A DNA stretch of 30,524 bases, taken from the IMG/VR virus record IMGVR_UViG_3300042900_000435, positions 1 through 30,524 of that record. One strand, 5' to 3'. Of the stretch, positions 1 through 15,257 are shown in pieces (the first letter of the stretch is position 1; each line of letters begins with the position of its first letter). A model generated the notes under the pieces. The model made no database searches. It worked only from the letters and a program-made list of their open reading frames with translations, and was not told the DNA's origin. A program made the position numbers and the translations under genes. Source of the stretch: a virus. Its lineage: Duplodnaviria; Caudoviricetes.

Positions 1-1529
1 TCGTCTACACGATCTAGCATCTCGAGTCCTACCTTAACAATAGTGTGTGCGTGTCGATCATCATCCAACGGAGCACCGTGTATGTGCATGCTAGCATCAC
101 CTACATACTTGAGAACCATGCCGTTGGCATCAATGATAGGAATAGTGATAGCATCCATGTATCCGTTCATATACTTGGCTAGACCTTCAGGACCACCATT
201 GCCTGGTTTGTCAAAATATTCGCCGATAGGTGTAAAACCACGTAGGTCGCTAAACATAACACTTACGTCTTTCTTAATGCCCTTCTTGATTAGATCCGGA
301 TTCTCTTGTAACAGTCTAACTACTTCAGGCGAGCAGTAACCAGCAAATTGTTTCTTTATGGCCTGCTTTTGTAAGAACTCGCTTACAAACTTAACGCCGT
401 AAGTATGAAGAGCAACGATAACAAGCCCAGCCGCGAGCGCAGTCGCGTCTGATAGGATGAGCCAATTATTGAAAGCGTAGATAGTACCAGGAACGACGGC
501 ACCAACAATAACCACAGTAGCACCAATGCCAACATAAGTCCACCTCGACAAGAAAATTAATAATATGCCGAATGCTAGTAATGCTAGTATTTCAACTCCG
601 TCGGCATAGTCAGGACGTTGAATCACTACTCCGTTGATCATAGTTGCCATTACTGCCGCTTGCACATCTTGTGGCCACACTGCACCTTTGGCTGTAGGCA
701 AAGGATTGGCAATGCCAGCTGCGGTTGGACCCACAATCACGATAGCACCATTAAAGTTTTTGGGCAAGTCTAATAGACTCGCCTGCTGGTTTTCTTGACT
801 CCAATCGATCCACACACGACCTAATGCATCTGTTGTAATAGGACCAAACTTGGGTATACGCATTTTCTCAACACCAAGCTCGTTGAGCTTGACTTGAAAT
901 GTTGAGTCGCCAGCGGCCACACGAAGTGCTTCCATAGACATACTGGGATACAGTTTGCCATCAACAGATACAACTAGGGGAAGTCTACGATTAACACCAT
1001 CTACTTCTGGTAGTGTGCTAACAATACCAATACCTGCTGCTGCGTTTTCTAGCTGCGGTACATTAGCAATTAATCCAGGATACTGTATAATTTGACCTAA
1101 GTGCTCTGGACCTAACACTGCTGAGCCAGGATTGCGAGGAGAGTTCTTGGTTTTTTGCGATGGCACGCTGCCCATTACAACTGGATATTGTTTTAGGGCA
1201 TTTGCGAGAACAGCATCGCCACCAGTGCGATCAGGCTCAGCCATGATAACATTGAGCACAACAAGGCCAGCACCACGATCATACAAATCTTTAATAATTT
1301 TTGCATACTCTGCCCTGGGTAGTGGCCATTGGCCATATTTGTCTAAGGCTGCTTCATCTATGTTTACTGTATAGATGTTGTTGGCAGTTGGAGCTTTTTG
1401 TGTAATTAGTGTGTCAAAGTAGCGTAGTCTTACACTTTCTACAAAGACAGGATCGGCGATTCTTATACTTACAATAAGTGCCAATGTTAATAGGGCAGTC
1501 CAAGGACTTAGGAGGATTTTTTTCAGCAT
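1..1529 (-). CDS. CHASE2-domain class III adenylate/guanylate cyclase (3' end runs off the window; absent from the ORF track)
   Basis: Manual translation from ATG 1529: MLKKILLSPWTALLTLAL (TM), CHASE2 motifs TVNIDEAALDKYGQWPLPR and LPEVDGVNRRLPLV, a hydrophobic TM bundle, then in-frame cyclase motifs VMFSDLRGFT (M at 257) and MVLKYVGDA (M at 119). The Lys of KYVGD suggests ATP specificity. Confidence 0.93.
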   Translation of the reverse strand, partial: MLKKILLSPWTALLTLALIVSIRIADPVFVESVRLRYFDTLITQKAPTANNIYTVNIDEAALDKYGQWPLPRAEYAKIIKDLYDRGAGLVVLNVIMAEPDRTGGDAVLANALKQYPVVMGSVPSQKTKNSPRNPGSAVLGPEHLGQIIQYPGLIANVPQLENAAAGIGIVSTLPEVDGVNRRLPLVVSVDGKLYPSMSMEALRVAAGDSTFQVKLNELGVEKMRIPKFGPITTDALGRVWIDWSQENQQASLLDLPKNFNGAIVIVGPTAAGIANPLPTAKGAVWPQDVQAAVMATMINGVVIQRPDYADGVEILALLAFGILLIFLSRWTYVGIGATVVIVGAVVPGTIYAFNNWLILSDATALAAGLVIVALHTYGVKFVSEFLQKQAIKKQFAGYCSPEVVRLLQENPDLIKKGIKKDVSVMFSDLRGFTPIGEYFDKPGNGGPEGLAKYMNGYMDAITIPIIDANGMVLKYVGDASMHIHGAPLDDDRHAHTIVKVGLEMLDRVD

Positions 1530-1545
1530 GAAATATTTATGCTGT

Positions 1546-3219
1546 TTATTGTCCCTGTGTCACAGTAATTTTAGCACATCCGCCGGCAGTGGTACAGTTA
1601 TGCGTGATTGAATAGTAGTTTTGAGTACTGCCACTTTGTGTTAAGCTCAGATCAGTAGGCGTGCCGCTTAGATTAACTTTGGCCATATGGCCTGCACTAC
1701 CTTGTTGTAGTATATCTACATTTTTATTACCGCCGCTCAGTGTGACTTCAGCATAGTGACTACCACTGTCTTTTTGTTGCACTAGTAAACTGTTGTTATT
1801 GCTACCGACATCGGCAAATATTCCTTTGCTGCCACCAGTACTGGTCTGTTGTAGATCTACTGAGTTAAAATTGCCCACAACTCTCAAGTCAACATAGTTT
1901 ACCTGTGTCGTGGCATTACCAGTTTGTGTGATGTTAACATCGTTGCTTAGGCCGTTGCCATAGTAATTAACATAATTATTTCGTGTACCAGATTGATTGA
2001 CGATAACTTCATTCTGTGTTCCAAGTTGTTCAATATTAACTTTACTATCGGCAGTTGTTCTGTTAGTAAATGTTAAAACTTTGGCTGTATTTGTTGTATT
2101 TGCATTGAAAGATGCTGCTGATCCTCCACAGCATAATGTGTTGTTAGCTGCGGTCACTGGATCAACAATTGTATTACTAGATGCTGTTGATGTTGTTGTG
2201 CTGTTGGCATCATAGTAATAGGTAATCTCCGCAATCTGCATACTGTCGCAATTCAGCCCGCACCCATCACCTGCTTTGGTAGTTGGAAACAGCATAAAGT
2301 AATATGTGTAAGCAGTGGTATTACCTGTGCTAATCACTGAGCTAGTAGTAAAACGATTTTCACTTAATGTGATAGAATCTTGCTTAATCAATGTCCAAGT
2401 CGAACCATCATTACTGCCGTATAGTTTATAACTTGTAGGATCACGTCCACTAAAATCGTTGGCTGTGGTAACTGTAAATCCTGTCACTATTCTACCGGAA
2501 TTTAACTGAACAGTAACACCTGCATTCTTCTTATCAAAGTTTAGATATTTTGTATTTGGATTATTATCAAATGCATTATTAGGACCTTCACCGCCGGGAC
2601 TATTATTACTAGTTGGTATTGCTCTAGTAATATTAACTGTGGCACTGTTCATGTAGATTGCTGTAGGCGCAGGTGGAGGAGGACCTGCCGGTGCGGCAGT
2701 TTGCCCAGCAGCCAATGGAGTTGTTGATCCGTTAGCAGCGTATGAGTTAACCTGCGCCACTGTGGGATTCACTGTGCCAGTCCATGACAATCCGCTAGTA
2801 TTGGCAAATCCTTGTGTCATACTAAACAACTGGCCAGTATTGTTATCGTTACCTACAAAGAAGAAATAGTCTGTGCCCATATTAATAATACGTCCAGTTC
2901 CCATCACTGCTTTCTGTGTGCCTCCTGAACTAAATTGCACAGCGTTCCAGGGGTTAGTTGAATTACCAGTAGCAGCAAATGCCACATAATCACCAGTCGC
3001 CCATGCTAATTGTCCACTAGTCCAAGGGATCTTGTATGCTGTTCCTGGTTGCTTACTATAAATTTGACAAGTTGCTGTATACATACAGGCGCTGACGTTC
3101 CATTGACTGTCAGCAATTTGAAAGCGGCCAAATTTTAAATCAACAAGACCTGTTGCTTGACTATGTGCGCTCAGACAAAATGCCGTTAGAAAAGAAAATA
3201 TTAATAAGAAACGCTTCAT
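1546..3219 (-). CDS. Secreted chimeric protein: N-terminal domain, Pro linker, F5/8 type C (discoidin/CBM32-like) domain, C-terminal curlin repeats
   Basis: Signal peptide; APAGPPPPAP linker; EGPNNAFDNNPNTKY...RDPTSYKLYGSNDGSTWTLI...MQIAEI discoidin-like signature; C-terminal Q-x-G-x-x-N-x-x-x-V-x-Q repeats (IEQLGTQNEVIVNQSG and following). Confidence 0.8.
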   Translation of the reverse strand: MKRFLLIFSFLTAFCLSAHSQATGLVDLKFGRFQIADSQWNVSACMYTATCQIYSKQPGTAYKIPWTSGQLAWATGDYVAFAATGNSTNPWNAVQFSSGGTQKAVMGTGRIINMGTDYFFFVGNDNNTGQLFSMTQGFANTSGLSWTGTVNPTVAQVNSYAANGSTTPLAAGQTAAPAGPPPPAPTAIYMNSATVNITRAIPTSNNSPGGEGPNNAFDNNPNTKYLNFDKKNAGVTVQLNSGRIVTGFTVTTANDFSGRDPTSYKLYGSNDGSTWTLIKQDSITLSENRFTTSSVISTGNTTAYTYYFMLFPTTKAGDGCGLNCDSMQIAEITYYYDANSTTTSTASSNTIVDPVTAANNTLCCGGSAASFNANTTNTAKVLTFTNRTTADSKVNIEQLGTQNEVIVNQSGTRNNYVNYYGNGLSNDVNITQTGNATTQVNYVDLRVVGNFNSVDLQQTSTGGSKGIFADVGSNNNSLLVQQKDSGSHYAEVTLSGGNKNVDILQQGSAGHMAKVNLSGTPTDLSLTQSGSTQNYYSITHNCTTAGGCAKITVTQGQ

Positions 3220-4313
3220 GGTCTTCTCAATACTCCGGTCTTCTGAATAATGTTTACAACATTGCCGCCTGGATCTCCGCTACCGATTATATTAAACGCA
3301 TATTGATCGTTGTGACTGATTGATACAAAAGTATTCGAATCGTATCCGGATGTTTTTACTTCAGCGTAGTGATCTACATTACTTCTGTAGGCTGTGCCTT
3401 TACCTTTACTTTGTATATCAGATGAATCATTCTTTTCCCACGCCACACATACTGATGTGCTAGCATTACAACCAATCTTTCCAGCTGCTTCCATCATGGC
3501 AAGTATCCGAGCACTTTCAATAGCTTCGTTTGTTTCTCTAACTCTCATGGCAATTCGACGTTGTGCTTCTACTTCAATATCTTCAAATTCTCGATCTTGT
3601 TTTGATCTTGCTTGTTGTTTTATTGCGAGCATAACTTCTTGAGGCTTAACAAGAATTAAATTGTTACCTATATTGCCTTCGATAGTATTAACAACAACCG
3701 GGGCAGTTGGCATCATTGAAGCACTAGTGACATAGGTAGCTTCAAACGCTTTGTCTAGAGTCACTGATCCGATGCCTGTACTTACTGTGATACTGCCTAC
3801 TTTACAACGTTGTTCGTCTAATTCAAATTGTTTAACATCTTTTTCGTCTTTACAACTAGGAACCAGCATGACAAGACTTTGCCCAGTTTCGTCCACAGTC
3901 ATAGTGAAGTCAGTGCCACGCACTGCCACCGTGGCTGTTGGGGTTTTAATGTTTACCTGTTGCGGATTATTTTTAGCAATTTGTCCACTAGCGTATCGGA
4001 CAGTGCCCATACCAACTTTGAGCGCGAGCTTGCCTGCATCTGATTTCTTAGGATCGAAAACAAAATCGTCGATAAGCAATCTGCTGTTTTCTGTAACCTT
4101 GACTTTGGTATCATCTTTGAATGTTATATTACTTACACAGGCACCGGTTGTGTAGGTGTCCATGCTTTCAATGTCAGCCCCCTTGACTCCTGAAAGTTTT
4201 TTCTTGTTGCGTTCAACTTCACAGGCTGTGCCTTTGTTTTCTGAAACCGTGCCAATGCCAGCCCAGGAAGGGCTGGCCACTGTTAGCAATAGGGCTAACA
4301 ATATGACACGCAT
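3216..4313 (-). CDS. FecR-domain exported protein
   Basis: Signal peptide (ASPSWA); FecR motif ITFKDDTKVKVTENSRL...GTVRYASG...IKTPTATVAVRGTDF; ATGA overlap with the downstream gene. Confidence 0.85.
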   Translation of the reverse strand: MRVILLALLLTVASPSWAGIGTVSENKGTACEVERNKKKLSGVKGADIESMDTYTTGACVSNITFKDDTKVKVTENSRLLIDDFVFDPKKSDAGKLALKVGMGTVRYASGQIAKNNPQQVNIKTPTATVAVRGTDFTMTVDETGQSLVMLVPSCKDEKDVKQFELDEQRCKVGSITVSTGIGSVTLDKAFEATYVTSASMMPTAPVVVNTIEGNIGNNLILVKPQEVMLAIKQQARSKQDREFEDIEVEAQRRIAMRVRETNEAIESARILAMMEAAGKIGCNASTSVCVAWEKNDSSDIQSKGKGTAYRSNVDHYAEVKTSGYDSNTFVSISHNDQYAFNIIGSGDPGGNVVNIIQKTGVLRRP

Positions 4314-4315
4314 AA

Positions 4316-5131
4316 TTACCTCGCAATCGCTGTGGCTGGTGATACAATGTTCGAACTACTTGTACGAACTGTGATAGTGTTGTTGCTACCCTGTGTTTGT
4401 ATATTAACTGTGGTATCGTTGGTACCTTGTTGCTGAGTGGTAATACTGTTATAGTCACCAACGGTATTCATGGCAAGAATATGTCCGTTAGCACCGGCTG
4501 CATCCATTTGCTGAATGTTGAATACGTTGGCATTACCGTTAACAATATTAGATACTTGACCTCTGCTACTTAACAAACTGCTAGTAACTTGGTTGTTGTC
4601 ACCATCTAACACTGTGTTAGTTGTGATATTGCTACCGACTAGCTCTTGTAGAATCATGTTGTTATTACCGATAATTTGTTCTGTAATAACGTTTTGACTG
4701 TTAGTAGCATTATTGGGATTGCCAACAGTCAGTCTAGTTTGATTACCATTACCTAACATGTTGGTAGTATAACTATTATTGCTACCGCGAATGTTATACT
4801 GGCTGCTATTAGCATTGCCGGTTTGTGTGATGTTAACCGTATTTGTGCTGCCTGTAATAGTTCCGTAGTTTGTTGCGCTAGGAGCATCTGGTGTCAGTGT
4901 GGTAATACCTGTTCCAGATACTGCGGTTGCTACTGTTGTAGTAACACCGCCAACATTGTTTGTCCCGCCAACCTGTTCGATAGTGATAGTATTGCTACTA
5001 CCAACTTGTTCGATATAGACTTTGTTAGGGCCTGTTGCTGTCTGAGCACCACTTATGGTGGCAAAGCTCAAAAGCATCACTGTGAGTAATTTTCTCGACA
5101 ACTCACTACCGCCTGTCATTGTTTGTTTCAT
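4316..5131 (-). CDS. Curlin-repeat protein (CsgA/CsgB-like amyloid subunit)
   Basis: Signal peptide; N/Q/G/T-rich; repeated IEQVGSSNTITIEQVGG, ITQTGNANSS, QQQGTNDTTVNIQTQGSNNTITV; lies next to csgG/csgF. Confidence 0.85.
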   Translation of the reverse strand: MKQTMTGGSELSRKLLTVMLLSFATISGAQTATGPNKVYIEQVGSSNTITIEQVGGTNNVGGVTTTVATAVSGTGITTLTPDAPSATNYGTITGSTNTVNITQTGNANSSQYNIRGSNNSYTTNMLGNGNQTRLTVGNPNNATNSQNVITEQIIGNNNMILQELVGSNITTNTVLDGDNNQVTSSLLSSRGQVSNIVNGNANVFNIQQMDAAGANGHILAMNTVGDYNSITTQQQGTNDTTVNIQTQGSNNTITVRTSSSNIVSPATAIAR

Positions 5132-5228
5132 TTTTTTTCTAATGTCAGTTTATTTTTTGCTGACAAGTTCCTTGGACCTGTGTCCGTTGATAATATTTAC
5201 TTGCTCCTATTACAATATTATACTCCGC

Positions 5229-5276
5229 TGTTAAAATTTCAACATGTTAAAATTCCAACATGTTAAAATTCCAACA
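5229..5276. repeat. Three tandem 16-bp palindromic units TGTTAAAATT(T/C)CAACA (TGTT-N8-AACA); candidate CRP/Clr-family boxes
   Basis: Units at 5229-5244, 5245-5260 and 5261-5276 in the csgG-curlin spacer; minus-strand TATAAT at 5217-5222. Confidence 0.85.
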
Positions 5277-5279
5277 CCA

Positions 5280-6524
5280 TTAAGGTTTGTCAACCAGTAC
5301 ATCCTGCTTAACAAATCCTGATCTCTTTTCTGAATCGCTTACTTTGTGCCAGCCTTCTGGTCCCGGAGCAATAATGGTTAATTCAGTGCCTTTCTTTAAC
5401 AGCCAGGTGCGCTGACTTTTTTCATTTGCTTCTTTATAAACATATGAATCTTCTTTTAAATATCTAGCACCAAATAAATCTACTGTGGGCTTTATGCCAG
5501 TTTGCATCGCTGTTACTTTTAAATCAGCTGTAGGTTCTTCTTTCTTTACTTCTTGGGAGGTACTGGATACGGTTTCGGTTTTGGTTTCGGATTTGGTCTG
5601 TGGTTGAACCAACTCATCTTTCTTCTCCTCTACTGCTGGTGCAGGTGCAACTATTGGTGCGGGTATCGTTGGAATAACAGCAACCGGAGCACTTACTTTA
5701 TTGCTTTTAAATGCCCAGTGACCTTTGCGGGCACCTTCGTTGATAGTTTGAATTACTGCTGCCTGTACAGCTACGTCGATTGCCTTGTTGATGCTTTCAT
5801 TTATACTGCCGCCGACTTCACCCTCTAACGCATTTGCGTTAGCACCTAAAGTTGTGCCGTCTCCAACAAATCGCAATAATGTTACTTTGTCCATATAACT
5901 CAAGACTGTTTTGGTCACAGTCACTGTTGTTAAAATTTCGCCTGTAGACACGCTCACGGTTCTTAATGTCACTGTCACAGTGTCTGATTGATATTGTGTG
6001 CTTGCACCAATACCAAACAGTCTCACTCCACTGCCGCCTGTTAGGGTATTTGAATCATAGCCAACAATACCACCTTCCATGATAATTCCAGCAAACATCA
6101 TTGGAGGCAACAGCTTGGCATCACGTCCTTGATATTGTTCACGCATTTGACGAATCATTTGACGTTCTTTAATCAAGTTCTCTAGACCGACACGTTCTAA
6201 CACTGTGAACCAGCGTTGATCACCTACATCCTGCAGGGCCTTGATTAGATAGTTTTCAGCACCTTGCGTAACTGCTGAACTTAATGACGCAATCAGTGGC
6301 TGGCTTTTACGCTGCCCTGTTAGATCTCTAAATCCATACACTGCCACTGTTAACGGACCGCCTTCTGGTGGTTGTAATTTATTAGCGTCTTTCTTTAGAA
6401 ATTTACTAGACTCGACTTTTGGTTCGTCAAACTGATTTCCAGTTATTTTTTCTCTGATAGCTGAACTCGATGCGCAGCCAGTTAATACTGCAACAACTGC
6501 CAAGGATAATAATGTCTTTTTCAT
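5280..6524 (-). CDS. csgG: Curli secretion channel lipoprotein CsgG with C-terminal linker and SH3b-like domain
   Basis: Lipobox LTGC; CsgG motifs VAVYGFRDLTGQRK, LSSAVTQGA, WFTVLERVGLENLIKERQMIR, EGGIVGYDSN; last ~60 aa (LLKKGTELTII...GWHKV...SGFV) look like SH3b. Confidence 0.92.
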   Translation of the reverse strand: MKKTLLSLAVVAVLTGCASSSAIREKITGNQFDEPKVESSKFLKKDANKLQPPEGGPLTVAVYGFRDLTGQRKSQPLIASLSSAVTQGAENYLIKALQDVGDQRWFTVLERVGLENLIKERQMIRQMREQYQGRDAKLLPPMMFAGIIMEGGIVGYDSNTLTGGSGVRLFGIGASTQYQSDTVTVTLRTVSVSTGEILTTVTVTKTVLSYMDKVTLLRFVGDGTTLGANANALEGEVGGSINESINKAIDVAVQAAVIQTINEGARKGHWAFKSNKVSAPVAVIPTIPAPIVAPAPAVEEKKDELVQPQTKSETKTETVSSTSQEVKKEEPTADLKVTAMQTGIKPTVDLFGARYLKEDSYVYKEANEKSQRTWLLKKGTELTIIAPGPEGWHKVSDSEKRSGFVKQDVLVDKP

Positions 6525-6527
6525 CGA

Positions 6528-7013
6528 TTATCCCCCAAATCCAAATGTGCCGCTAGGCACGATCATTTCTGTAAATTGTCTTGGATCTAGTACATTTTCA
6601 ATTCTAACAACAATATTAGTGCCTACTACTTTCCAAGTAATGAAATTACCTGCCACTTCCATCTCGCCACAGTTACCTGAATTGTTAGCAGTGCAAACTG
6701 GAACACCATTAACACCAAACAAACTGTCTGTAATTTGTTTGGCTAGTTGTGAATAGATACGACTTTCTAAATTTGCTTTAAATTTAGCCTGCGGAGTGTT
6801 TAGTGCATCAGATTCTGCTTTTGCTTTTAGAGCATCGGCAGCAGCCTTATTTTTATCCCTAGCTTGTGTTTCTAATTGGTGTATAGTTAAGACGTGAGAA
6901 CTAAAACCAATACCACTAAAGGATGGGCTGTTAAAATTATGTTGTAATTCTGCACTGTTAGCTGCTGTTGCAATTGTAGCCATCAATGCGGTGGCTATTA
7001 TAAACTTAACCAT
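6528..7013 (-). CDS. csgF: Curli assembly protein CsgF
   Basis: Signal peptide followed by AELQHNFNSPSFSG (CsgF N-terminal NPxFGG-like motif) and FKANLESRIYSQLAKQI; directly upstream of csgG. Confidence 0.85.
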   Translation of the reverse strand: MVKFIIATALMATIATAANSAELQHNFNSPSFSGIGFSSHVLTIHQLETQARDKNKAAADALKAKAESDALNTPQAKFKANLESRIYSQLAKQITDSLFGVNGVPVCTANNSGNCGEMEVAGNFITWKVVGTNIVVRIENVLDPRQFTEMIVPSGTFGFGG

Positions 7014-7103
7014 CGATTCGCTCCCGGTAGTTACTGTTAGTATTTACGTAGGGACGATCTAAAGTTAACTGATTAGTTTAATCTAGATTAAAAGGATAGT
7101 TTA

Positions 7104-8201
7104 TTACGGTACCTTGACCTGCATACCATTCTGAGCACCGCCATCGATCCCTAATTTTTGTATGATCATAGTTTGTGCAAATTGGTCGGCAGTTTCAATG
7201 TATATGATATTTCCGGAACCGGTGTTGATGAATAATATTCCTTTAAATTCATCATGTGTTTTATAATAATCAAATGCGTATTTTTTTAATGCTGTGTAAA
7301 AAGAATCAAATATAACCGATCCTTGATTGTTCACTGCCGGGGCAGTTAATTGATTAAGTTCTGCAGGAGTTGCATCAAGATAGATAGAATTTATAACACC
7401 GCTAAGAGATGTTCTAATAAATTTTACCACACTGGCTGGCTTGGCACCTGCATTAATCAATGTTGGCCCGAAGTTATTCCAGAAATCTGATGTTTTTCCC
7501 ACATTAACAGTAGCAGGCGCAGTAATTGGGGCTTTTAATCCCAACTTACTAGGAAGGCTTGCGGCTGCTGTTTTTAGTGCCGACAGAGTTGAAGTGCTGT
7601 TACCGTAGCCTCGAACACCTTTAATTCTTCCGCCGTTGCCTTTTACTTCAATTAATTTACCAGCAATTACTAAATCGCCAGCGTCTTTGCTTAACATGAT
7701 TTTTGGGCTACAGATAGCCAAAAACATTTCTCCTGGGCCTTTTTGTGTTTTTGTCTTACCTGTTTTAAACAGTCCTTGAATAGCTATTAACTCGGGAGCG
7801 ACTTGTTTATAAACATTGGGATAGTTAGTAACAACCAATGATTCAAGATTTTGCCATACTCCGGGTGATAGTAGTTTTTTAAGATTAATAATGCCTTTTG
7901 TTGCTAATTCTACAGCGAAGCCTTCTTTTTCTTCATATGGTGCCTTGGCATCAATAATAGCTCTAGAAATAACAGTATGCACTTGACGAAGATCTTCGTC
8001 TTTCTGTAGAATCGAATCTACGCCACCGCCGATATCAATCTTTCTTACATAAGAATAAATTTGATGCAATTCATCGATATCTGTGACCTGATCAATTTTA
8101 CTAACAATTGCCTGCTTTACATTAGTCAATTGGCTAGAATTTGCAGGAGTTTCTCCTGGGGTTTGCGATATTTTTTCTGATAAAAATTCAAAGGATCTCA
8201 T
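7104..8201 (-). CDS. Hypothetical protein with PD-(D/E)xK nuclease-like motif
   Basis: GPGEMFLAI...AGDLVIAGKLIEVKG fits an E...GD...EVK catalytic pattern. Confidence 0.55.
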   Translation of the reverse strand: MRSFEFLSEKISQTPGETPANSSQLTNVKQAIVSKIDQVTDIDELHQIYSYVRKIDIGGGVDSILQKDEDLRQVHTVISRAIIDAKAPYEEKEGFAVELATKGIINLKKLLSPGVWQNLESLVVTNYPNVYKQVAPELIAIQGLFKTGKTKTQKGPGEMFLAICSPKIMLSKDAGDLVIAGKLIEVKGNGGRIKGVRGYGNSTSTLSALKTAAASLPSKLGLKAPITAPATVNVGKTSDFWNNFGPTLINAGAKPASVVKFIRTSLSGVINSIYLDATPAELNQLTAPAVNNQGSVIFDSFYTALKKYAFDYYKTHDEFKGILFINTGSGNIIYIETADQFAQTMIIQKLGIDGGAQNGMQVKVP

Positions 8202-8209
8202 ACAGTTAT

Positions 8210-8893
8210 TTATCGGATTTCAGGGAACAGGCATTCTTGGATAAAATGCTGAACATCGTCCTCTGATAGTCCTAAACTAACCATTACACGCGGTGTATGC
8301 GGGTTACACTTCTGATTTTGTGCATAGTAGTTCTGTGCTTCTGTAGTATCTGCCGCTGTATTGTTTGTTTCAGCAACTGTGCTTAGATAGTGTTCTATTG
8401 TAGTTTTTGCTAGATCTGTGATCTGTTGTAATTCTTCTTCATCGCTGACATTACCAGCAGCAACCATGCTACCACTGAATATGTTTGTAGCCCACTCGGG
8501 CAGGGCACGTTGTTTACGCCATTCTAATTTGGCCACTTCATCATGAAACCATTGCATCATAGGATGGTCAGCATCACCCGCTTTGGAGTAATCATGGAAA
8601 CAACCTGTGATTTTGTTTTTGCCAGCAATTACATCGAAGCCGTAGATCGGTGCTGGATTATGCGTATGCGGGAAGATGCAACAATGCATCATCCAAAGTC
8701 CCTTGCTTTCTCTAGCGTCTACTACATCAACGTGAGCACGACGATACCGATCACTAGTCCACACACGATTAACCCAGCCAGGTTGATTAAATCTTTCCAT
8801 CCCAGGCTCATTAACCTCTTGACCCGTGCGGCTGAAGTTATCTTCCAATAGATGTTGGATCTCAATTAGTGTATCCCATACCTTACTCTCCAC
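8210..8893 (-). CDS. pcyX: Ferredoxin-dependent bilin reductase, PcyA/PcyX family
   Basis: RRAHVDVVD...MMHCCIFP...PIYGFDVIAG...FHDYS, LPEWATNIFS and QNYYAQNQKCNPHT motifs; Asp at the PcyA Glu76-equivalent position; adjacent heme oxygenase. Confidence 0.85.
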   Translation of the reverse strand: MESKVWDTLIEIQHLLEDNFSRTGQEVNEPGMERFNQPGWVNRVWTSDRYRRAHVDVVDARESKGLWMMHCCIFPHTHNPAPIYGFDVIAGKNKITGCFHDYSKAGDADHPMMQWFHDEVAKLEWRKQRALPEWATNIFSGSMVAAGNVSDEEELQQITDLAKTTIEHYLSTVAETNNTAADTTEAQNYYAQNQKCNPHTPRVMVSLGLSEDDVQHFIQECLFPEIR

Positions 8894-9428
8894 GATACAA
8901 ATCTCGCATCATTTTAATAGCATATTCAAATGCTACACGAGCTTCGTCTCCAAGGTCGTCTGTTAGTGTTTGACGGATGGCCATTTTCATCGCATCGCCA
9001 TTATCAAAGTCGTAGAACTTGCCACTGCTAATATGTGCTACTTGTTTCTTAATGATTTGACCACCGAATAGGTCACCCATATGACGGCAGTATAAATGCG
9101 CCTTAACCAAATGTTTACGTTCCGGATCATTGCCTAGTTTGTGTAAGTATGTCTGATACTCAAGTGTAGCAGGAGTTAGATAACAGTAACTACCGTCGTC
9201 TAATTCTAGAAAGTCTGCAAGAATACCCTTGAGACGAGGAAGGTCTGGCATTGTGACCAGGAACCCCTGACGCTGACAATACCATTCAATAGGATCGTAT
9301 ATGGCCAAAAGATTATAGAGATAATTTCTGTAGTCTTGTTTTTCAATCTTGCCACTCAGCAACATCTTGGCAAACACAGTGGTTTCTGCTTCGTGATGCA
9401 GATCTTTGGTAATCTCTCTTAGACTCAT
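8883..9428 (-). CDS. hemO: Heme oxygenase
   Basis: LREITKDLHHEAE proximal-His motif, AHLYCRHMGDLFGGQII, EARVAFEY. Confidence 0.92.
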   Translation of the reverse strand: MSLREITKDLHHEAETTVFAKMLLSGKIEKQDYRNYLYNLLAIYDPIEWYCQRQGFLVTMPDLPRLKGILADFLELDDGSYCYLTPATLEYQTYLHKLGNDPERKHLVKAHLYCRHMGDLFGGQIIKKQVAHISSGKFYDFDNGDAMKMAIRQTLTDDLGDEARVAFEYAIKMMRDLYRGE

Positions 9429-9724
9429 TCTGGATCCACTAACACACGCAAAGGTGATCCATTCTGACGGGCCACTGCTGTGGCTTCCATGCCTTTTTGT
9501 TCGGCGATTTCAAAACTGTAGACACCTGCAACTCCGCTACCTGTTTCATGTATTTCTAATGTAACTTCTTTGGCAGAAGATTCGGTGTGCTTAAATATTC
9601 CTGTAAGCAGTTCTATAACCAATTCCATTGGGGTGGAATCGTCATTAAGCAGCACCACTTTCCACAAGCTGGGTGGCTGAAGTGCTACAACTACTGATTC
9701 TTCTACTGCGGTATCTGTTGACAT
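9425..9724 (-). CDS. clpS: ATP-dependent Clp protease adaptor ClpS
   Basis: PPSLWKVVLLNDDSTPMELVI...LEIHETGSGVAGVYSFEIAEQK. Confidence 0.92.
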   Translation of the reverse strand: MSTDTAVEESVVVALQPPSLWKVVLLNDDSTPMELVIELLTGIFKHTESSAKEVTLEIHETGSGVAGVYSFEIAEQKGMEATAVARQNGSPLRVLVDPE

Positions 9725-9749
9725 ATCGTTCCTGTGTTCTGTATTTAAT

Positions 9750-9769
9750 AAGGGAGGGTGGCCTCCCTT
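9750..9769 (-). terminator. Hairpin downstream of hsp20 (possible terminator)
   Basis: aagggagg-gtgg-cctccctt perfect 8-bp stem; weak U tract. Confidence 0.5.
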
Positions 9770-9777
9770 ATAGTATA

Positions 9778-10221
9778 CTATTTAATATCGACAATGTCAA
9801 TAACTTTTGGCTTTGCAGACTCGGGAACGTTTCTCACTAATTTAATAGTAAGCATGCCATTCTTTGTTTCTGCACCAACTACTTCAATGTGTTCTGCCAA
9901 TGGAAATTCTTTGGCAAAATCACGAGTAGCAAGACCTCTGTGTAGATATACAATTTCCGGATTCTCATGGCGAATAGATTCTGTTCCTTCGCCCGCAACT
10001 GTAAGAACATTAGATTCCACAGTAACAGAAATTTCCGATTTCTCAAATCCTGTCACAGCAATTTGAATCTCATACTGATTCTCACCAGTCTTGAGAATAT
10101 TGTGTGGCGGATAGTTGTTGGTTACACTATTAGCGTAACGACGTTCCATTTGGTCAAACATGGTGTCGAACCCGACCAGTGCTCTGCTTAGAGCATCTAA
10201 TTTTGTTAATTGATTGTTCAT
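9778..10221 (-). CDS. Small heat shock protein (Hsp20/IbpA-like)
   Basis: GFDTMFD, NYPPHNILK, IAVTGF, YLHRGLATRDF, NGMLTIKL. Confidence 0.95.
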   Translation of the reverse strand: MNNQLTKLDALSRALVGFDTMFDQMERRYANSVTNNYPPHNILKTGENQYEIQIAVTGFEKSEISVTVESNVLTVAGEGTESIRHENPEIVYLHRGLATRDFAKEFPLAEHIEVVGAETKNGMLTIKLVRNVPESAKPKVIDIVDIK

Positions 10222-10226
10222 AATAG

Positions 10227-10244
10227 TCTCCTTTTAAAGTAAGA
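10227..10244 (-). promoter_or_regulatory. SD-sequestering hairpin (ROSE-like thermometer candidate) of hsp20
   Basis: mRNA UCUUACUUUAAAAGGAGA; near-identical element precedes dnaK. Confidence 0.5.
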
Positions 10245-10277
10245 ACAATTGAGGCCTCGAAAGTACCTCGTTTATGA

Positions 10278-12176
10278 TTAGTCTGCCTTCTTCTCTGTGA
10301 AGCTGGCGTCGACTACATCATCTGGGCTAGGCTGGGTAGGCTGTGCTTGTGCCGCCTGTTCCTTGGCCTGCTTTTTCTCTAACAATGTTTTCATTGCCGG
10401 GAAAACCTTGTTAAGCTCTTCGGTGATCTTTTCAGCATCGTCACCTTTAGCTGCTGTTTCAACTGCGGTAATCACTGTTTCAATTTCTGTGACTTCTGCT
10501 TCTGTAAGCTCTGCACGGAATTCCTCAAGATCTTTTTTGACTTCGTGCACCTGTGCTTCTGCTGAATTTCTTGTATCGATCAGCGTACGAGCTTTCTTGT
10601 CTGCTTCTGCATTCAACTCTGCGTCTTTGATCATGGCTTGAATTTCAGCTTCTGATAGTCCACTGTTAGATTTAATAGTGATCTTGTTTTCTTTGCCTGT
10701 GGCCTTGTCTTTGGCTGAGATATGCATGATACCGTTGGCGTCAATGTCAAAGGTAACTTCAACTTGTGGCTGTCCTCTACGTGCAGGAGCAATACCGTCT
10801 AGTTTAAATTCACCTAACAACTTGTTATATTGTACAAGCTCACGTTCGCCTTGGAACACCTTGATATCCACTGCTGGTTGATTATCTTCTGCTGTTGAGA
10901 ATGTCTGCTGTCCTTTAGTCGGAATAGTAGTATTCTTTTGGATGATCTTGGTCATTACACCGCCCATGGTCTCAATGCCCAGGCTCAATGGTGTGACATC
11001 TAACAACAGCACGTCATTGCGATCGCCACCTAGCACAGCACCCTGGATAGCAGCACCAACGGCAACTGCTTCATCTGGATTAACGTCTTTGCGTGGTGCT
11101 TTGCCAAACAGTTTCTCAACTTCTTCTTGTACCTTAGGCATGCGTGTCTGGCCACCTACTAAGATGACTTCGTCGATGTCTGAGGCACTCACGCCTGCAT
11201 CCTTGAGAGCAATACGGCATGGCTCTAATGAACGTGTGATTAGTTCGTCAACCAGTTGTTCTAGTTTACTACGTGTGATCTTAACATTCATGTGTTTAGG
11301 ACCGGTAGCATCTGCTGTGATGTAAGGAAGGTTGACATCTGTCTGAGCCGAACTTGACAATTCAATCTTGGCTTTTTCAGCAGCGTCTTTCAAACGTTGT
11401 AGGGCCAACATGTCTTTGCTTAGATCCACACCTGCTTCTTTCTTGAACTCATCCACCAGATAGTCCATGATGCGTTGGTCAAAGTCTTCACCACCTAAGA
11501 ATGTATCTCCGTTGGTGCTTAATACTTCAATCTGCTTGTCCCCGTCTACATTCGCGATTTCGATGATCGACACATCGAAAGTACCGCCACCAAGGTCGTA
11601 AACAGCAATTTTCCTATCAGCTTTGTCATCTTTATCAACACCATAAGCAAGAGCTGCCGCAGTAGGCTCATTGATAATACGAAGTACCTCCAAGCCTGCG
11701 ATCTTTCCAGCATCTTTAGTGGCCTGTCTTTGGCTGTCGTTAAAATACGCTGGAACTGTGATAACTGCTTGAGTAACTGTTGTACCAAGATAATCCTCCG
11801 CTGTCTGTTTCATTTTACGCAGAACTTCTGCTGAAATCTGTGGAGGTGCTAGTTCTTTGTCTTGTGCCCTAACCCATGCATCGCCATTACTATTTTCATA
11901 GATTTCGTAGGGCATGAGGTCGAGGTCTTTTTGCACAGCCTGTTCTTTGAACTTGCGACCGATCAGTCGTTTGCTGGCATAAATTGTGTTCTTGGGATTT
12001 GTTACTGCCTGACGCTTGGCTGAAGCGCCAACAATGATTTCGTCTTGTGTATAGGCTACGATTGAGGGCGTAGTTCTAGCACCTTCTGAATTTTCAATAA
12101 CTTTGGATTTTCCATTCTCGATAACAGCCACGCATGAGTTGGTGGTGCCGAGGTCAATACCGATGATCTTAGACAT
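10278..12176 (-). CDS. dnaK: Chaperone DnaK (Hsp70)
   Basis: [55 protein letters not shown]. Confidence 0.99.
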
Positions 12177-12181
12177 GTTCT

Positions 12182-12200
12182 ATCTCCTTTAAAGTAAGAT
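12182..12200 (-). promoter_or_regulatory. SD-sequestering hairpin (ROSE-like thermometer candidate) of dnaK
   Basis: mRNA AUCUUACUUUAAAGGAGAU; two further hairpins and an exact TATAAATA lie upstream (about 12254-12261). Confidence 0.5.
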
Positions 12201-12261
12201 CTATTTGAGCACTATGCTCTATGAACTGCCCTTGACGGTGCAATTCACAATTTTATTTATA

Positions 12262-12546
12262 TCAGATATTCTCTAGATTCTGAATATTTGACCACTTTTT
12301 TAATTTTTCACGTTTAGCTTCAGCTGCACGATCAATATTTGTCCAGCTCACAATATCCATGCTGTGCAAGATATCGATCATGGTTATCATGTCGCCCAGC
12401 TCTTCTTCTAGGTGTGCCCTATTGGTTTTAGGTTTGCCCGGCTTGTAATTATCAAGCCCGAAGCGGCTGATTTTACTTACCGCTTGTATAACTTCAGCAC
12501 ATTCTTCTTGGAGAATGTCCATTACTTCTTTGGTTTGACTGTCCAT
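12262..12546 (-). CDS. MazG-like nucleotide pyrophosphohydrolase
   Basis: LQEECAEVIQAVSK...LEEELGD (EExxE...EExxD). Confidence 0.85.
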   Translation of the reverse strand: MDSQTKEVMDILQEECAEVIQAVSKISRFGLDNYKPGKPKTNRAHLEEELGDMITMIDILHSMDIVSWTNIDRAAEAKREKLKKWSNIQNLENI

Positions 12547-12549
12547 ATA

Positions 12550-13131
12550 TTACCTTTGATTTGCAAATGGTGCGATATAGTTACCGTCGCTCATTGTGCT
12601 GGTCCGCAGAGCTTTGTAGACATTTTGCACACCCACTGCTTGATTCCACGCATCTTCGAGAGCATGATGTTTTAGCACTGGAGGACGGTTGGGATTAATG
12701 CCTACATCAAAAATTGTACGGGTGTCACGAACTTCCCAGAAGCTCCACGGAATAGCTTTGCCGATTTTACGGAAATACCATTCTAGGATCGTAACGTCAA
12801 ATCCTGCACCGTGACTCCATACTCGTTTTCCGCCCCAACAAAACTTATACAGTTGTGTCATTGCTTCTTCAATAGATACTCTGTTTGCAGGATCAAATGC
12901 TTCGTTCTGAGCTTCCTGGCTTTGGTTGGCCCACCAATCTAAGGTAGCCTGTGATACCGTAGCACCAATCCGATCACAGCTATCAACATCAACACGGACA
13001 TAAAATTTCTCACATTTCTTTTCGTTTACATCGTCACCAAATGGATCAAATTTAACTGCTCCAATGGTAAGGATTGTGGCGGAGGGAAGGACGTCAAGCG
13101 TCTCCAAGTCTATCATAATATCTGTGTTCAT
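12550..13131 (-). CDS. DEDDh 3'-5' exonuclease (Rv2179c/RNase AS-like exoribonuclease)
   Basis: IMIDLETL, VWSHGAGFDVTIL, RDTRT, HHALEDA. Confidence 0.88.
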   Translation of the reverse strand: MNTDIMIDLETLDVLPSATILTIGAVKFDPFGDDVNEKKCEKFYVRVDVDSCDRIGATVSQATLDWWANQSQEAQNEAFDPANRVSIEEAMTQLYKFCWGGKRVWSHGAGFDVTILEWYFRKIGKAIPWSFWEVRDTRTIFDVGINPNRPPVLKHHALEDAWNQAVGVQNVYKALRTSTMSDGNYIAPFANQR

Positions 13132-13137
13132 ACAGTT

Positions 13138-13166
13138 ATTATACTACCTTTCTGACCAATGGTCAA
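13138..13166 (-). promoter_or_regulatory. Sigma70 promoter giving a probably leaderless exonuclease mRNA
   Basis: TTGACC-17-TATAAT ending 6 nt before ATG 13131. Confidence 0.75.
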
Positions 13167-13169
13167 TGA

Positions 13170-13406
13170 TTAAAACAGTTTAGGGGGAAGTTGTTGATCG
13201 CGGAGTTTTTTACGCCAACGTGCTTTGGCAGCACCTTTTTTGCGTTTGCGTTCAGTGGTAGGTTTTTCGTAGAATTCTTTGGCACGTAGAGTGTCCAGTG
13301 TGCCAGCTTCTTCGATTTTCTTTTTAAATCGACGCAGAGCCTGATTGATGTTTTCGTTTTCTTTGACTACAACACCAGTGCCTTTTGATTTACTAAATCT
13401 ATTCAT
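13170..13406 (-). CDS. rpsU: Ribosomal protein bS21
   Basis: [18 protein letters not shown]...[20 protein letters not shown]. Confidence 0.93.
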
Positions 13407-13794
13407 GATGATTTGAGACTTTCTCCAATAAAGTTAAAATTTCTTCAACACTGTATATAGCACGATCGTTGACCATATGTAAATCTTTTAGATTGCCAAA
13501 ATAGTAAGATCGTGGTTGAGCCGCTACCCAACCTATGATTAATTCGATAGCACCATTATTTTCAGGAGAAGCGTTGAATATAATCAAATCACCTTTGACA
13601 ATTTTGTCCATTAACCATGCAATAGGGTCTCCCATTTTCCAAACATAGTTTATGATGGTATGGGGCAGCGTGGCCTGCATCAATGCGTTGGAAACGATAG
13701 CACTGTGTTCTTCTGTGAGTTCTACATGAACAATTCGAATACCTTGTAACAAGGTATCGTCAGGCGAAGTAACAACTAGAATACGGTCACTCAT
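13399..13794 (-). CDS. Hypothetical protein (start probably MSDRIL at 13794)
   Basis: ATGA overlap with the upstream gene; co-oriented; no recognisable motif. Confidence 0.7.
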
Positions 13795-15257
13795 TTTTTG
13801 GCGTCTTGAATTCGTTGCCAAATGGTACGTTCACTCTGTTCAGCATTCTGTTGATAGTTTTCTTTGATACGTTTGATCTGGTTGCCCTGTTCATCATGTT
13901 CCATCCACGACACATCAGAAACACCACGTTCTTCAGCCCACTCTTTGGCCTTTGCTGCTTCTTCTATGTCGGGATTTTCATCGGCCCATTTCTTGGCTTC
14001 TACAGCAGCTTCATCCACAAAGTCTGCCTGAGGTTTGAGATAATTTTCCCAAGGCAACTGATCTATGATGCCTTTTGCCAACAACTGTCTTTGAAACTTA
14101 AGACTAGAATCCGGATGATCATGTTTCCACGCTGTCATAGCCGCAGCTTCCGATGTGGTTGCCGCTTCTAATATTTCTGAGTCTTTGATCTCACGTTCTT
14201 GTTCTACAGCTTTCTCAGCTTCTGCAATCATTTTGTTCCATTGCTCAAGCGGTATGTCTTCTACCGTTTCTGCTGGCTTTTCCTCTGTTGCTGTTATATC
14301 ACCTCCTAGTGCAGTCAACGGTGTTTCGCCTGGAACTTTTTCTGTGTGTGTTTGTGCTGGTGGAAACGGCCAAAATGCGCTCGGTGTTCCGTAAAACGAG
14401 ATTGTTTCTTCTTTGGGTTCTATCTCTGGTTCTTCAGTTACGACTTCTGTTTTAACAATCTCCGGAGTTTCTTCTTCTTGTTTTCGGAACCATTGGAAAC
14501 TGTATTGGCTTGCTAGCAGTAAAATAACAGCCAACGGATCAAATACAATAACAATAATAATAATTACCCATGTTACTGCTTTTTCTAATACGTTAGCATC
14601 TGGATTATCACCGTAGATAAAATTGGCAATATATTTTATTGGTCCAACTTCTGCTTCTACTTTGCGGACCTCAGCGGCAATCGGTGCCCTCTCTTCAGAT
14701 AGTTGACTAATAATTTTCTGTTCGGCTGCAATCTCAGTTTGGAGACGAGCACGTTCTTTTTGTTGGCCTCTTCGAATCGCAACTGCTTTGTCGGCACCTT
14801 TTTCGTCACTGCTTCGACCCATGACTTGGTCCACAGCCTCATCCATCTGTTTAAGCGCCTTACGGTTCGCATCTATATTATCCTTGGCAGTTTTAATCTT
14901 TTCGTCGTAGACGGCTATTCTACTCTGCACATCACCTGATACAAGACTTTGATCACTGTGTGCTTTAGACAAGAAGCCAAAAATACCCATACTAGTGATT
15001 AACATCAATATGGCAATGGCTGCTAGCAGATAGGCTCGAATAAAATACGGTGCTCTAGTCCAATTTTGTTTGAGCCATACAGTGCCAGCCAGTTTGCTGA
15101 CTTCCAAGGCCACTCCCATCACGATGATGGGAATAACTGCCGCAGAGAATATGGCCACAAGTCCAGCCACGCTGTAATAGATGGCCACTGCAGATACCGT
15201 TAATCCGCTGATTAAGGTTGACCATGCAATGAATTTGTCGCTTGTATGTATTCTCAT
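13791..15257 (-). CDS. Membrane protein with three N-terminal TMs, a coiled coil, a fourth TM and an acidic tail
   Basis: Hydrophobic segments around aa 10-55, 75-95 and 228-250; heptad-rich middle; E/K-rich C-terminus. Confidence 0.75.
   Translation of the reverse strand: MRIHTSDKFIAWSTLISGLTVSAVAIYYSVAGLVAIFSAAVIPIIVMGVALEVSKLAGTVWLKQNWTRAPYFIRAYLLAAIAILMLITSMGIFGFLSKAHSDQSLVSGDVQSRIAVYDEKIKTAKDNIDANRKALKQMDEAVDQVMGRSSDEKGADKAVAIRRGQQKERARLQTEIAAEQKIISQLSEERAPIAAEVRKVEAEVGPIKYIANFIYGDNPDANVLEKAVTWVIIIIVIVFDPLAVILLLASQYSFQWFRKQEEETPEIVKTEVVTEEPEIEPKEETISFYGTPSAFWPFPPAQTHTEKVPGETPLTALGGDITATEEKPAETVEDIPLEQWNKMIAEAEKAVEQEREIKDSEILEAATTSEAAAMTAWKHDHPDSSLKFQRQLLAKGIIDQLPWENYLKPQADFVDEAAVEAKKWADENPDIEEAAKAKEWAEERGVSDVSWMEHDEQGNQIKRIKENYQQNAEQSERTIWQRIQDAKK

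Follow-up and report, generated by a model that had tools for sequence, protein, structure and literature searches.

What might a phage gain from a curli secretion pore that is encoded next to a FecR-fold protein and a CHASE2-class III adenylate cyclase? The question is raised by the 30,524-base virus record IMGVR_UViG_3300042900_000435 of IMG/VR (analyzed at its full length and called the window here), in which six open reading frames (ORFs) on the minus strand occupy positions 3-7013. Since 2020, three proposals for what such gene blocks do have been published, and the literature examined contains no test of any of them. Gene content and order, linkage, and predicted folds, together with a promoter array that is conserved and a cyclase that is under purifying selection and has intact catalytic Asp, Lys, and Arg residues, lead us to hypothesize tentatively that a FecR/CHASE2 module has here been combined by a phage with a CsgG/CsgF pore and curlin-like proteins, and that the block acts as a trans-envelope sensor converting the state of the surface into cyclic AMP (cAMP) in an infected Gram-negative cell. 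We give this reading a little less than an even chance. Were it true, lytic phages would read the exterior of the infected cell and set its cAMP, and CsgG would have a signaling role beyond fiber export. What is added here to the published picture is a tether-like FecR protein, a dispensable lectin subunit, a Ser-type cyclase, and a palindrome array; the cultured phage Melnitz has the block.

The window carries a further instance of the viral curli block

All six genes lie on the minus strand. In coding order, they are a csgF-like gene (6528..7013; 161 amino acids [aa]; Pfam CsgF E 2e-8), csgG for a pore lipoprotein with a Pro/Ala-rich linker and a C-terminal SH3-like domain (5280..6524; 414 aa; Pfam CsgG E 1e-46), a gene for a curlin-like beta-solenoid (4316..5131; 271 aa; Curlin_rpt E 7e-4, slightly under the cut-off), a gene for an exported FecR-fold protein (3216..4313; 365 aa; Pfam FecR E 7e-10), a gene for a lectin-curlin, an accessory surface protein with a curlin-like tail (1546..3219; 557 aa; F5/8 type C E 2e-12), and the CHASE2-class III adenylate cyclase gene (3..1529; residues 1-509 of 684; CHASE2 E 4e-39). 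The gaps between them are 3, 148, 2, -4, and 16 nucleotides (nt). ORFs and Pfam matches therefore confirm the six co-oriented genes of an initial annotation of this DNA. That annotation also listed csgE, csgC, and csgD as missing. For CsgE this holds more widely, as none was found in five large related contigs, three of them at least 90% complete, with a positive E. coli control; for csgC and csgD the absence is that from a Pfam scan of the window. Close relatives are T4-like phages of 350-364 kb, and related contigs of 353-364 kb that are 98-100% complete have a T4-type major capsid gene. The host likely belongs to the Burkholderiales, a weak hint that comes from ribosomal protein S21 and DnaK being nearest to Burkholderiales entries in a plasmid collection.

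The block is a further, apparently functional, instance of the published viral curli (type VIII secretion system, T8SS) block. Wittmers 2022 (PMC9599517) reported such a block and its expression, with putative regulatory roles for FecR and the cyclase; in that paper, FecR is read as an iron regulator and the CHASE2 label stands in the supplement, CHASE being absent from the main text; statements on this and the other papers cited refer to the parts of them covered here. Both that viral T8SS region and the block in the window lack csgE and have a second curlin and the cyclase downstream of FecR. Melnitz and HTVC008M show the same order, csgF-csgG-curlin-FecR-curlin-cyclase, with cyclases 42% and 33% identical to that of the window, respectively. 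Unlike Melnitz and the pelagiphages, the lineage of the window has an SH3-like CsgG tail, a lectin head on the second curlin, and a palindrome array before the curlin gene, and its pair of small membrane protein genes lies on the downstream side of the cyclase. Sibling capture, uptake, or lysis timing has been proposed as the function (Zaragoza-Solas 2020, PMC7029224; Buchholz 2022, PMC9004378). The expectation that the genes had not been described as one circuit stands in part: the gene block is published, but no paper treating it as a FecR-to-CHASE2 relay was found in the open-access literature, most of the Wittmers supplement lying outside the search. The open-access papers found to join CHASE2 with FecR or with curli include none on phages, and a term search of the jumbo-phage review PMC7824862 returned no mention of the block.

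The genes of the block stay together

Linkage was assessed in IMG/VR from three directions, with the best 80 of 130 cyclase matches, the best 80 of 111 CsgG matches, and the best 80 of at least 554 FecR-profile matches. Counts refer to distinct loci with enough flank and, as the phages are related, are not independent. Loci selected by FecR have csgG and csgF upstream in 72/72 cases, a curlin in 73/74, and a cyclase downstream in 45/46. When CsgG is the starting point, FecR is present in 48/48 and the cyclase in 38/38, with csgF upstream of csgG wherever there is room (59/59). Selection by cyclase gives FecR and csgG in 51 of 52 loci; FecR was not found in five cyclase-bearing records, all too incomplete (at most 38%) for this to carry weight. 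The linkage survives inversion of the cyclase or its displacement by several kilobases. The proposed neighborhood survey of csgG with FecR and a CHASE2 cyclase has thus found a linkage that is kept and is near-absolute in related phages. The block is also widespread, with about 1,500 IMG/VR stretches carrying FecR motifs. Two loci (L302:3078 and L310:6603) have an autotransporter-like gene between csgF and csgG and no second curlin before the cyclase.

The cyclase retains its catalytic Asp, Lys, and Arg residues

The cyclase gene of the window overruns the contig end, and a degenerate C terminus had been named as a possible weakness of the initial annotation. It is not degenerate: the whole 684-aa protein is encoded in four IMG/VR loci that are 100% identical over the 509 residues, and selection on it is purifying, with a catalytic-domain nonsynonymous divergence (dN) of 0.02-0.11 versus a synonymous divergence (dS) of 0.9-1.3 in six pairs and dN/dS far below 1 in both domains. 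The protein has one plus three transmembrane helices and, among the class III features, the two metal-binding Asp residues and the adenine-specifying Lys/Asp. D428, K474, and D478 lie in the window, while D548, S555, R559, and K598 are taken from the identical loci; D428, K474, D478, D548, R559, and K598 are invariant in 56/56 close copies. Among 111 distinct cyclases, 82 are of the Asp/Ser type, 25 Thr/Asn, and 1 Ser/Asn, with 3 unmatched. Both TCN (53) and AGY (29) codons are used for Ser at site 555, which points to selection for Ser. Ma1120, an active class III enzyme, has Ala at the Asn site (PMC4215837). Judged by its sequence, the protein is likely an active, perhaps attenuated, adenylate cyclase.

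The cyclase gene is split in two in L016, L021, L099, L034, L131, L278, L283, and L293, and in L034 and L131 an ORF of 223-268 aa, possibly an intron-borne endonuclease, lies between the halves. Stand-alone proteins of 99-119 aa that resemble the cyclase C-terminal domain, and could be regulators or decoys, are encoded mostly directly upstream of csgF (L063:2310-2669, L155:9096-9422, L030:3721-4053, L162:7909-8259, L040, L054, and L061); they have no Pfam match.

A FecR fold with a curlin-like end

In the model of the FecR protein (predicted local distance difference test score 78, predicted template modeling score 0.54), a signal-peptide-like helix is followed by a beta domain that reaches about residue 225, a 41-residue helix (238-278), and, at the C terminus, a six-stranded beta domain whose end is curlin-like. 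The FecR domain (about residues 19-225) matches PupR 6ovm with Z 14.8 and a root mean square deviation (rmsd) of 2.7 over 135 aligned residues (Foldseek E 1e-4), and in the model this fold is the periplasmic cell-surface signaling domain (CCSSD) of PupR type. The last 75 residues resemble the curlin tail of the lectin-subunit family (HHalign P 84%, E 8e-6, score 33; 20 column shuffles gave at most 14.8), a curlin-type terminal strand motif occurs at 113 of 125 distinct FecR ends, and the motif HYAEV is common to the FecR and curlin proteins of the window. No usable Atlas match was returned for the C-terminal domain, which the fold search scarcely covered. From model and sequence, we infer that the FecR protein could tether the pore to a periplasmic sensor.

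FecR proteins pair with CHASE2 receptors in bacteria

A GTDB scan returned 33 loci, namely four curli-linked contigs from metagenome-assembled genomes (MAGs), nine low-GC contigs, and 20 more distant loci. In the 20 distant loci, a CHASE2 receptor lies within two genes of FecR in 15, with a cyclase (2), HD-GYP (2), or kinase (11) output; three of the five loci without CHASE2 are cut short upstream. An order-level sample gave 35 further matches, and in the 20 regions examined CHASE2 was present in 16 and csgG in none. Across the bacterial loci, FecR and CHASE2 are constant and the envelope part varies (OmpA, a barrel-like fusion, or a TPR protein). As this pairing recurs in bacteria, a relay from FecR to the cyclase is supported by association. 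The pairing is in print (PMC5192318 and PMC9239204): in Burkholderia BiofilmReg operons and Campylobacterota cyclase clusters, an exported FecR-domain protein adjoins a CHASE2 receptor as in the phage block but, unlike there, without curli genes.

The four curli-linked MAG contigs, two of Caulobacteraceae and two of Henriciella (one cut before csgG), have cellular GC content and neighbors and a cyclase with the canonical Asn. This cellular form is rare in the genomes searched; samples of 401, 401, and 201 genomes reached the phage-type score level only in MAGs already known. Of the nine low-GC contigs, which have the look of binned phage DNA, seven carry the small membrane pair. In a cyclase tree (42 rows, 5 outgroups), the MAG cyclases nest among the phage ones, with a sparse rooting that is too thin for a donor to be named. 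In one Caulobacteraceae MAG, a Pycsar-type transmembrane effector gene (L172:11536-12129; PF18967, E 9e-25) follows the CHASE2 cyclase by 440 nt; no such gene was seen beside the three remaining cellular copies.

Pore, curlin, and an exchangeable surface subunit

The CsgG lipobox is kept in 119 of 138 distinct sequences and an SH3-like tail is present in 49 of the 138, the SH3_4 match of the window (E 7e-4) being below the cut-off. The model of the core curlin has as its best structural match Pontibacter CsgA 8c50 (Z 19.0, rmsd 8.6, 193 aligned; VIA-align), and Foldseek gave no clear match. By the motif scheme of PMC10192328, its repeats are degenerate, with five full motifs, a kept Asn ladder, and a partial Gln ladder. 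The beta-solenoid characteristic of curli amyloid systems is accordingly present by fold, in a degenerate repeat class.

The lectin-curlin combines a variable head, here with an F5/8 lectin-type domain, with a curlin-like tail that aligns to the core curlin (HHalign P 97.8%). When the 77 distinct loci that hold both FecR and cyclase are sorted by this slot, the curlin tail carries a head in 51 and stands alone in 14 (one of them also with a barrel protein); an autotransporter-like barrel protein takes its place in 7, and the profiles used detect neither tail nor barrel in the remaining 5, three of which encode proteins of 1,098-1,445 aa with a terminal Phe. Pfam finds F5/8 type C in 11, PA14 in 2, and Autotransporter in 3 of 53 representatives of the slot, and the curlin-tail and autotransporter-barrel forms share heads with up to 56.5% identity over 322 aa. 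As the contents of the slot vary and a head-bearing subunit is absent from some loci, the lectin-curlin is a dispensable, exchangeable accessory and not part of the core. Of the surface amyloid/lectin fiber initially proposed, the curlin fold is retained and the lectin subunit as a core component is not.

A palindrome array precedes the curlin gene

Three abutting 16-bp palindromes, TGTT-N8-AACA, at 5229..5276 form a likely regulator-binding array before the curlin gene, with a TATAAT -10-like box on the minus strand (5217..5222) 6 nt after the last palindrome. At least two such palindromes stand ahead of the curlin gene in 25 of the 133 distinct loci, compared with 11 of 3,127 background windows, and three of five contigs contain the tandem form, each a single time. 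The -10 box, although outside the search pattern, is kept in 21 distinct loci (T 21/21, A 19/21, A 21/21, T 20/21). By these sequence comparisons, the array appears clearly to be under selection. The 47 IMG/VR array matches comprise 30 at csgG/curlin, 7 of the same layout before other genes, and 10 that look like chance.

The Clr box was first described as TGTTN8AACA, and a relaxed version of it is found upstream of the FecR gene smc02177 (PMC5498481). That a cAMP-bound CRP-family protein reads the phage array is a guess, and a doubtful one. Matches to the E. coli CRP consensus number 14 against 20 expected, and sigma-70 scans stayed at chance level.

TAAATA, which resembles the T4 late promoter, occurs on the minus strand before csgF (7041..7046), the curlin gene (5194..5199), and the cyclase gene (1534..1539), and suggests three transcription units rather than one operon. 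The motif is found 15 times on the coding strand versus 3 times on the other and lies at most 100 nt upstream of 11/41 genes. The curlin leader (5132..5174, minus strand) has an AAGGA Shine-Dalgarno-like site followed by a hairpin (5143-5165). Distinct curlin leaders fold more stably than 95% of shuffles in 33 of 35 cases, with stem sequences that vary and pairing that is kept. The hairpin, with its A-rich loop, lies between AAGGA and the start codon and would bring the two together, an arrangement resembling the split ribosome-binding sites found in certain late genes of T4; alternatively, it could be a translational operator.

The promoter of triple palindrome, -10 box, and TAAATA also stands before other genes in L357, L392, L366, L371, L390, L372, and L378, at around 1501-1534 (in L371, at 520-553 from the other end). 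Five of these seven genes encode secreted Ser/Thr/Asn-rich proteins, two with a curlin-like signal peptide, and one encodes a 143-aa protein.

A candidate surface-to-cAMP sensor and its alternatives

When these results are placed side by side, a sequence of events can be envisaged. Late in infection, CsgG and CsgF would form an outer-membrane pore, which would recognize the curlin and the curlin-like end of FecR; these could stack together, leaving the FecR domain hanging in the periplasm on a helical stalk of roughly 60 angstroms. There it may contact CHASE2 and set cyclase activity according to the state of surface assembly. As no cAMP receptor was found in five large phage contigs, the receptor would be the host's, and cAMP might act via a host CRP-family regulator, possibly with feedback on the triple palindrome before curlin-fecR. 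The benefit could lie in late-infection adjustment, for example by timing lysis, or by coating the surface once cells, debris, or other phages have made contact. The relay interpretation of the initial annotation is in this sense partly supported. One may go further and picture a closed phage signaling loop. Here the FecR protein would be a trans-periplasmic tether, its curlin-like end sitting in the CsgG/CsgF pore and stacked on a short rod of curlin whose tips are exchangeable; binding or pulling at the surface would switch the cyclase; cAMP, together with a host CRP-family protein, would act on the triple palindrome to readjust curlin-fecR and further secreted surface proteins; and a membrane pair that resembles holins would tie the loop to lysis timing. 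This is unlikely; if true, it would amount to a surface sense organ that the phage has assembled from amyloid-secretion components, and to a counterpart of lysis inhibition in T4.

Known systems offer partial precedents. In Sinorhizobium meliloti, an outer-membrane receptor signals to CHASE2 cyclases (PMC7529298). The NsrA-CyaK/CyaD1/D2-Clr pathway and the phage block have in common an outer-membrane part, a CHASE2 cyclase with cAMP as its product (predicted in the phage), and sites that fit TGTTN8AACA, and a FecR-domain gene is among the Clr targets. In the phage block, CsgG and curlins replace the beta-barrel receptor, and no Clr-like receptor was found in five large phage contigs. Enterobacterial curli (csgBAC, csgDEFG) share CsgG, CsgF, and curlin-fold subunits with the phage block, which differs in that no CsgE was found, the repeats are degenerate, and FecR and a cyclase are partners.

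Several observations weigh against a surface-to-cAMP sensor. The usual catalytic Asn of the cyclase is Ser555, as in 82 of the 111 distinct full-length proteins, albeit with Arg559 kept. Neither a cNMP-binding nor a Crp-HTH domain was found, in five large contigs each. The palindrome array precedes the curlin gene in only 25/133 loci and is absent from Melnitz and HTVC008M, and the refined Clr core has an inner C/G (PMC10127613) that the phage sites lack. The S. meliloti FecR protein SMc02177, a Clr target, is not needed for signal perception (PMC5498481). The likeness of FecR to curlin is modest (pairwise BLAST E 0.003), and against the core curlin the FecR C terminus reaches only P 15% with score 25 (column shuffles at most 14.6). 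One cyclase locus, L063, has no csg genes within 9.5 kb upstream. Finally, when 73 distinct complete loci are compared in pairs, FecR-domain identity rises with that of CsgF (rho 0.83) and of curlin (0.79) and hardly with that of CHASE2 (0.15; 0.21 and 0.27 within two sampling sets). Physical linkage confounds all these identity correlations, and in the csgG-selected set those of FecR with CsgF and curlin vanish too. The low co-variation implies that cyclases swap freely; it may in part reflect the variable slot that separates the genes.

The same co-variation would suit a plain curli adhesin, an amyloid coat of the host with swappable lectin heads for aggregation, "sibling capture," or shielding, in which the cyclase raises cAMP on a separate cue and is only co-inherited and FecR is structural or capping. 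This has been proposed (PMC7029224 and PMC9599517) and agrees with the curlin fold and with variable heads that recur on autotransporter barrels. We nevertheless consider it somewhat unlikely, given that the head-bearing subunit is missing from some loci, that the curlin has degenerate repeats with five full motifs, that no clumping was seen with Melnitz (PMC9004378), and that the FecR-CHASE2 pairing across bacteria is left unexplained; in the marine samples examined from Data Set S1C, curlin reads are moreover roughly 5- to 70-fold below those of CsgG, a weak point, since a short domain is easily missed. Lysis control, with the pore and two small membrane proteins timing membrane damage and cAMP as a side output, appears quite unlikely. 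CsgG has been proposed as a pinholin or secretin (PMC9004378), late-type TAAATA motifs stand before the genes, and the small pair, which keeps close to the cyclase in all but one of 42 distinct loci (41), is weakly holin-like (PHROG holin E 1e-4 to 7e-3). These matches, however, span about 20 residues of the first helix only, the lipobox of CsgG fits an outer-membrane lipoprotein and not an inner-membrane pinholin, and the proposal assumed that curlin genes are absent (PMC9004378), yet they are annotated in Melnitz.

Two further alternatives concern single proteins of the block. A weak or dead Ser-type cyclase could be kept as a scaffold or as a decoy that jams a host CHASE2 pathway, as the prevalence of Asn-to-Ser replacement and the stand-alone copies of the C-terminal domain might suggest; this is very unlikely in view of the retained metal Asp pair, adenine-specifying Lys/Asp, Arg559, and Lys598, the two codon types for Ser, the activity of Ma1120 with Ala at this site, and the 26 phage copies that keep Asn. 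Iron or cofactor uptake (Wittmers 2022), in which the CsgG pore would serve for import and FecR would be a ferric-citrate regulator, would account for the Pfam FecR match and the PupR-like fold. Of the FecI/FecR/FecA arrangement, however, the phage has the CCSSD fold without a cytoplasmic anti-sigma domain, the N terminus being a signal-peptide-like segment, and no cognate TonB-dependent transducer, or any TonB-dependent receptor, was found in five large contigs. Bacterial relatives adjoin CHASE2 receptors, and uptake is therefore highly improbable.

Neighboring genes

The two small single-helix membrane proteins are paralogous and highly conserved (PHROG 18771). In L002 they are encoded on the minus strand at 13485-13865 and 14364-14645, beyond position 1 of the window; in the four identical loci they lie 1.4 and 2.3 kb past the cyclase, outside the window. 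They are homologous to genes before csgF in Melnitz and HTVC008M and are, to go by position and size, probably the short "HK" genes, one or two per block, of Wittmers 2022. The pair was not found beside the four cellular curli-linked copies. Its identity tracks that of the cyclase (rho about 0.5) more than that of FecR (0.15-0.17), and YvrJ/BhlA look-alikes at 0.83-0.84 are a lead only.

Directly upstream of csgF, a 365-aa ORF at 7104-8201, present in few related loci, has no Pfam or PHROG match. Farther upstream lies a host-like cluster (8210-13406) of ferredoxin-dependent bilin reductase, heme oxygenase, ClpS, Hsp20, DnaK, MazG, an exoribonuclease, and ribosomal protein S21, a cluster that members of this lineage often keep next to the block. 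We treat the bilin genes, clpS, hsp20, and dnaK as neighbors of the block and not as parts of it; in the stretch shown, Melnitz and HTVC008M lack them. Neither a metallophosphoesterase (35/57 loci) nor a D-Ala-D-Ala carboxypeptidase (30/57) is a constant part; the latter (Peptidase_S11; L002:12092-12826) often stands directly after the cyclase.

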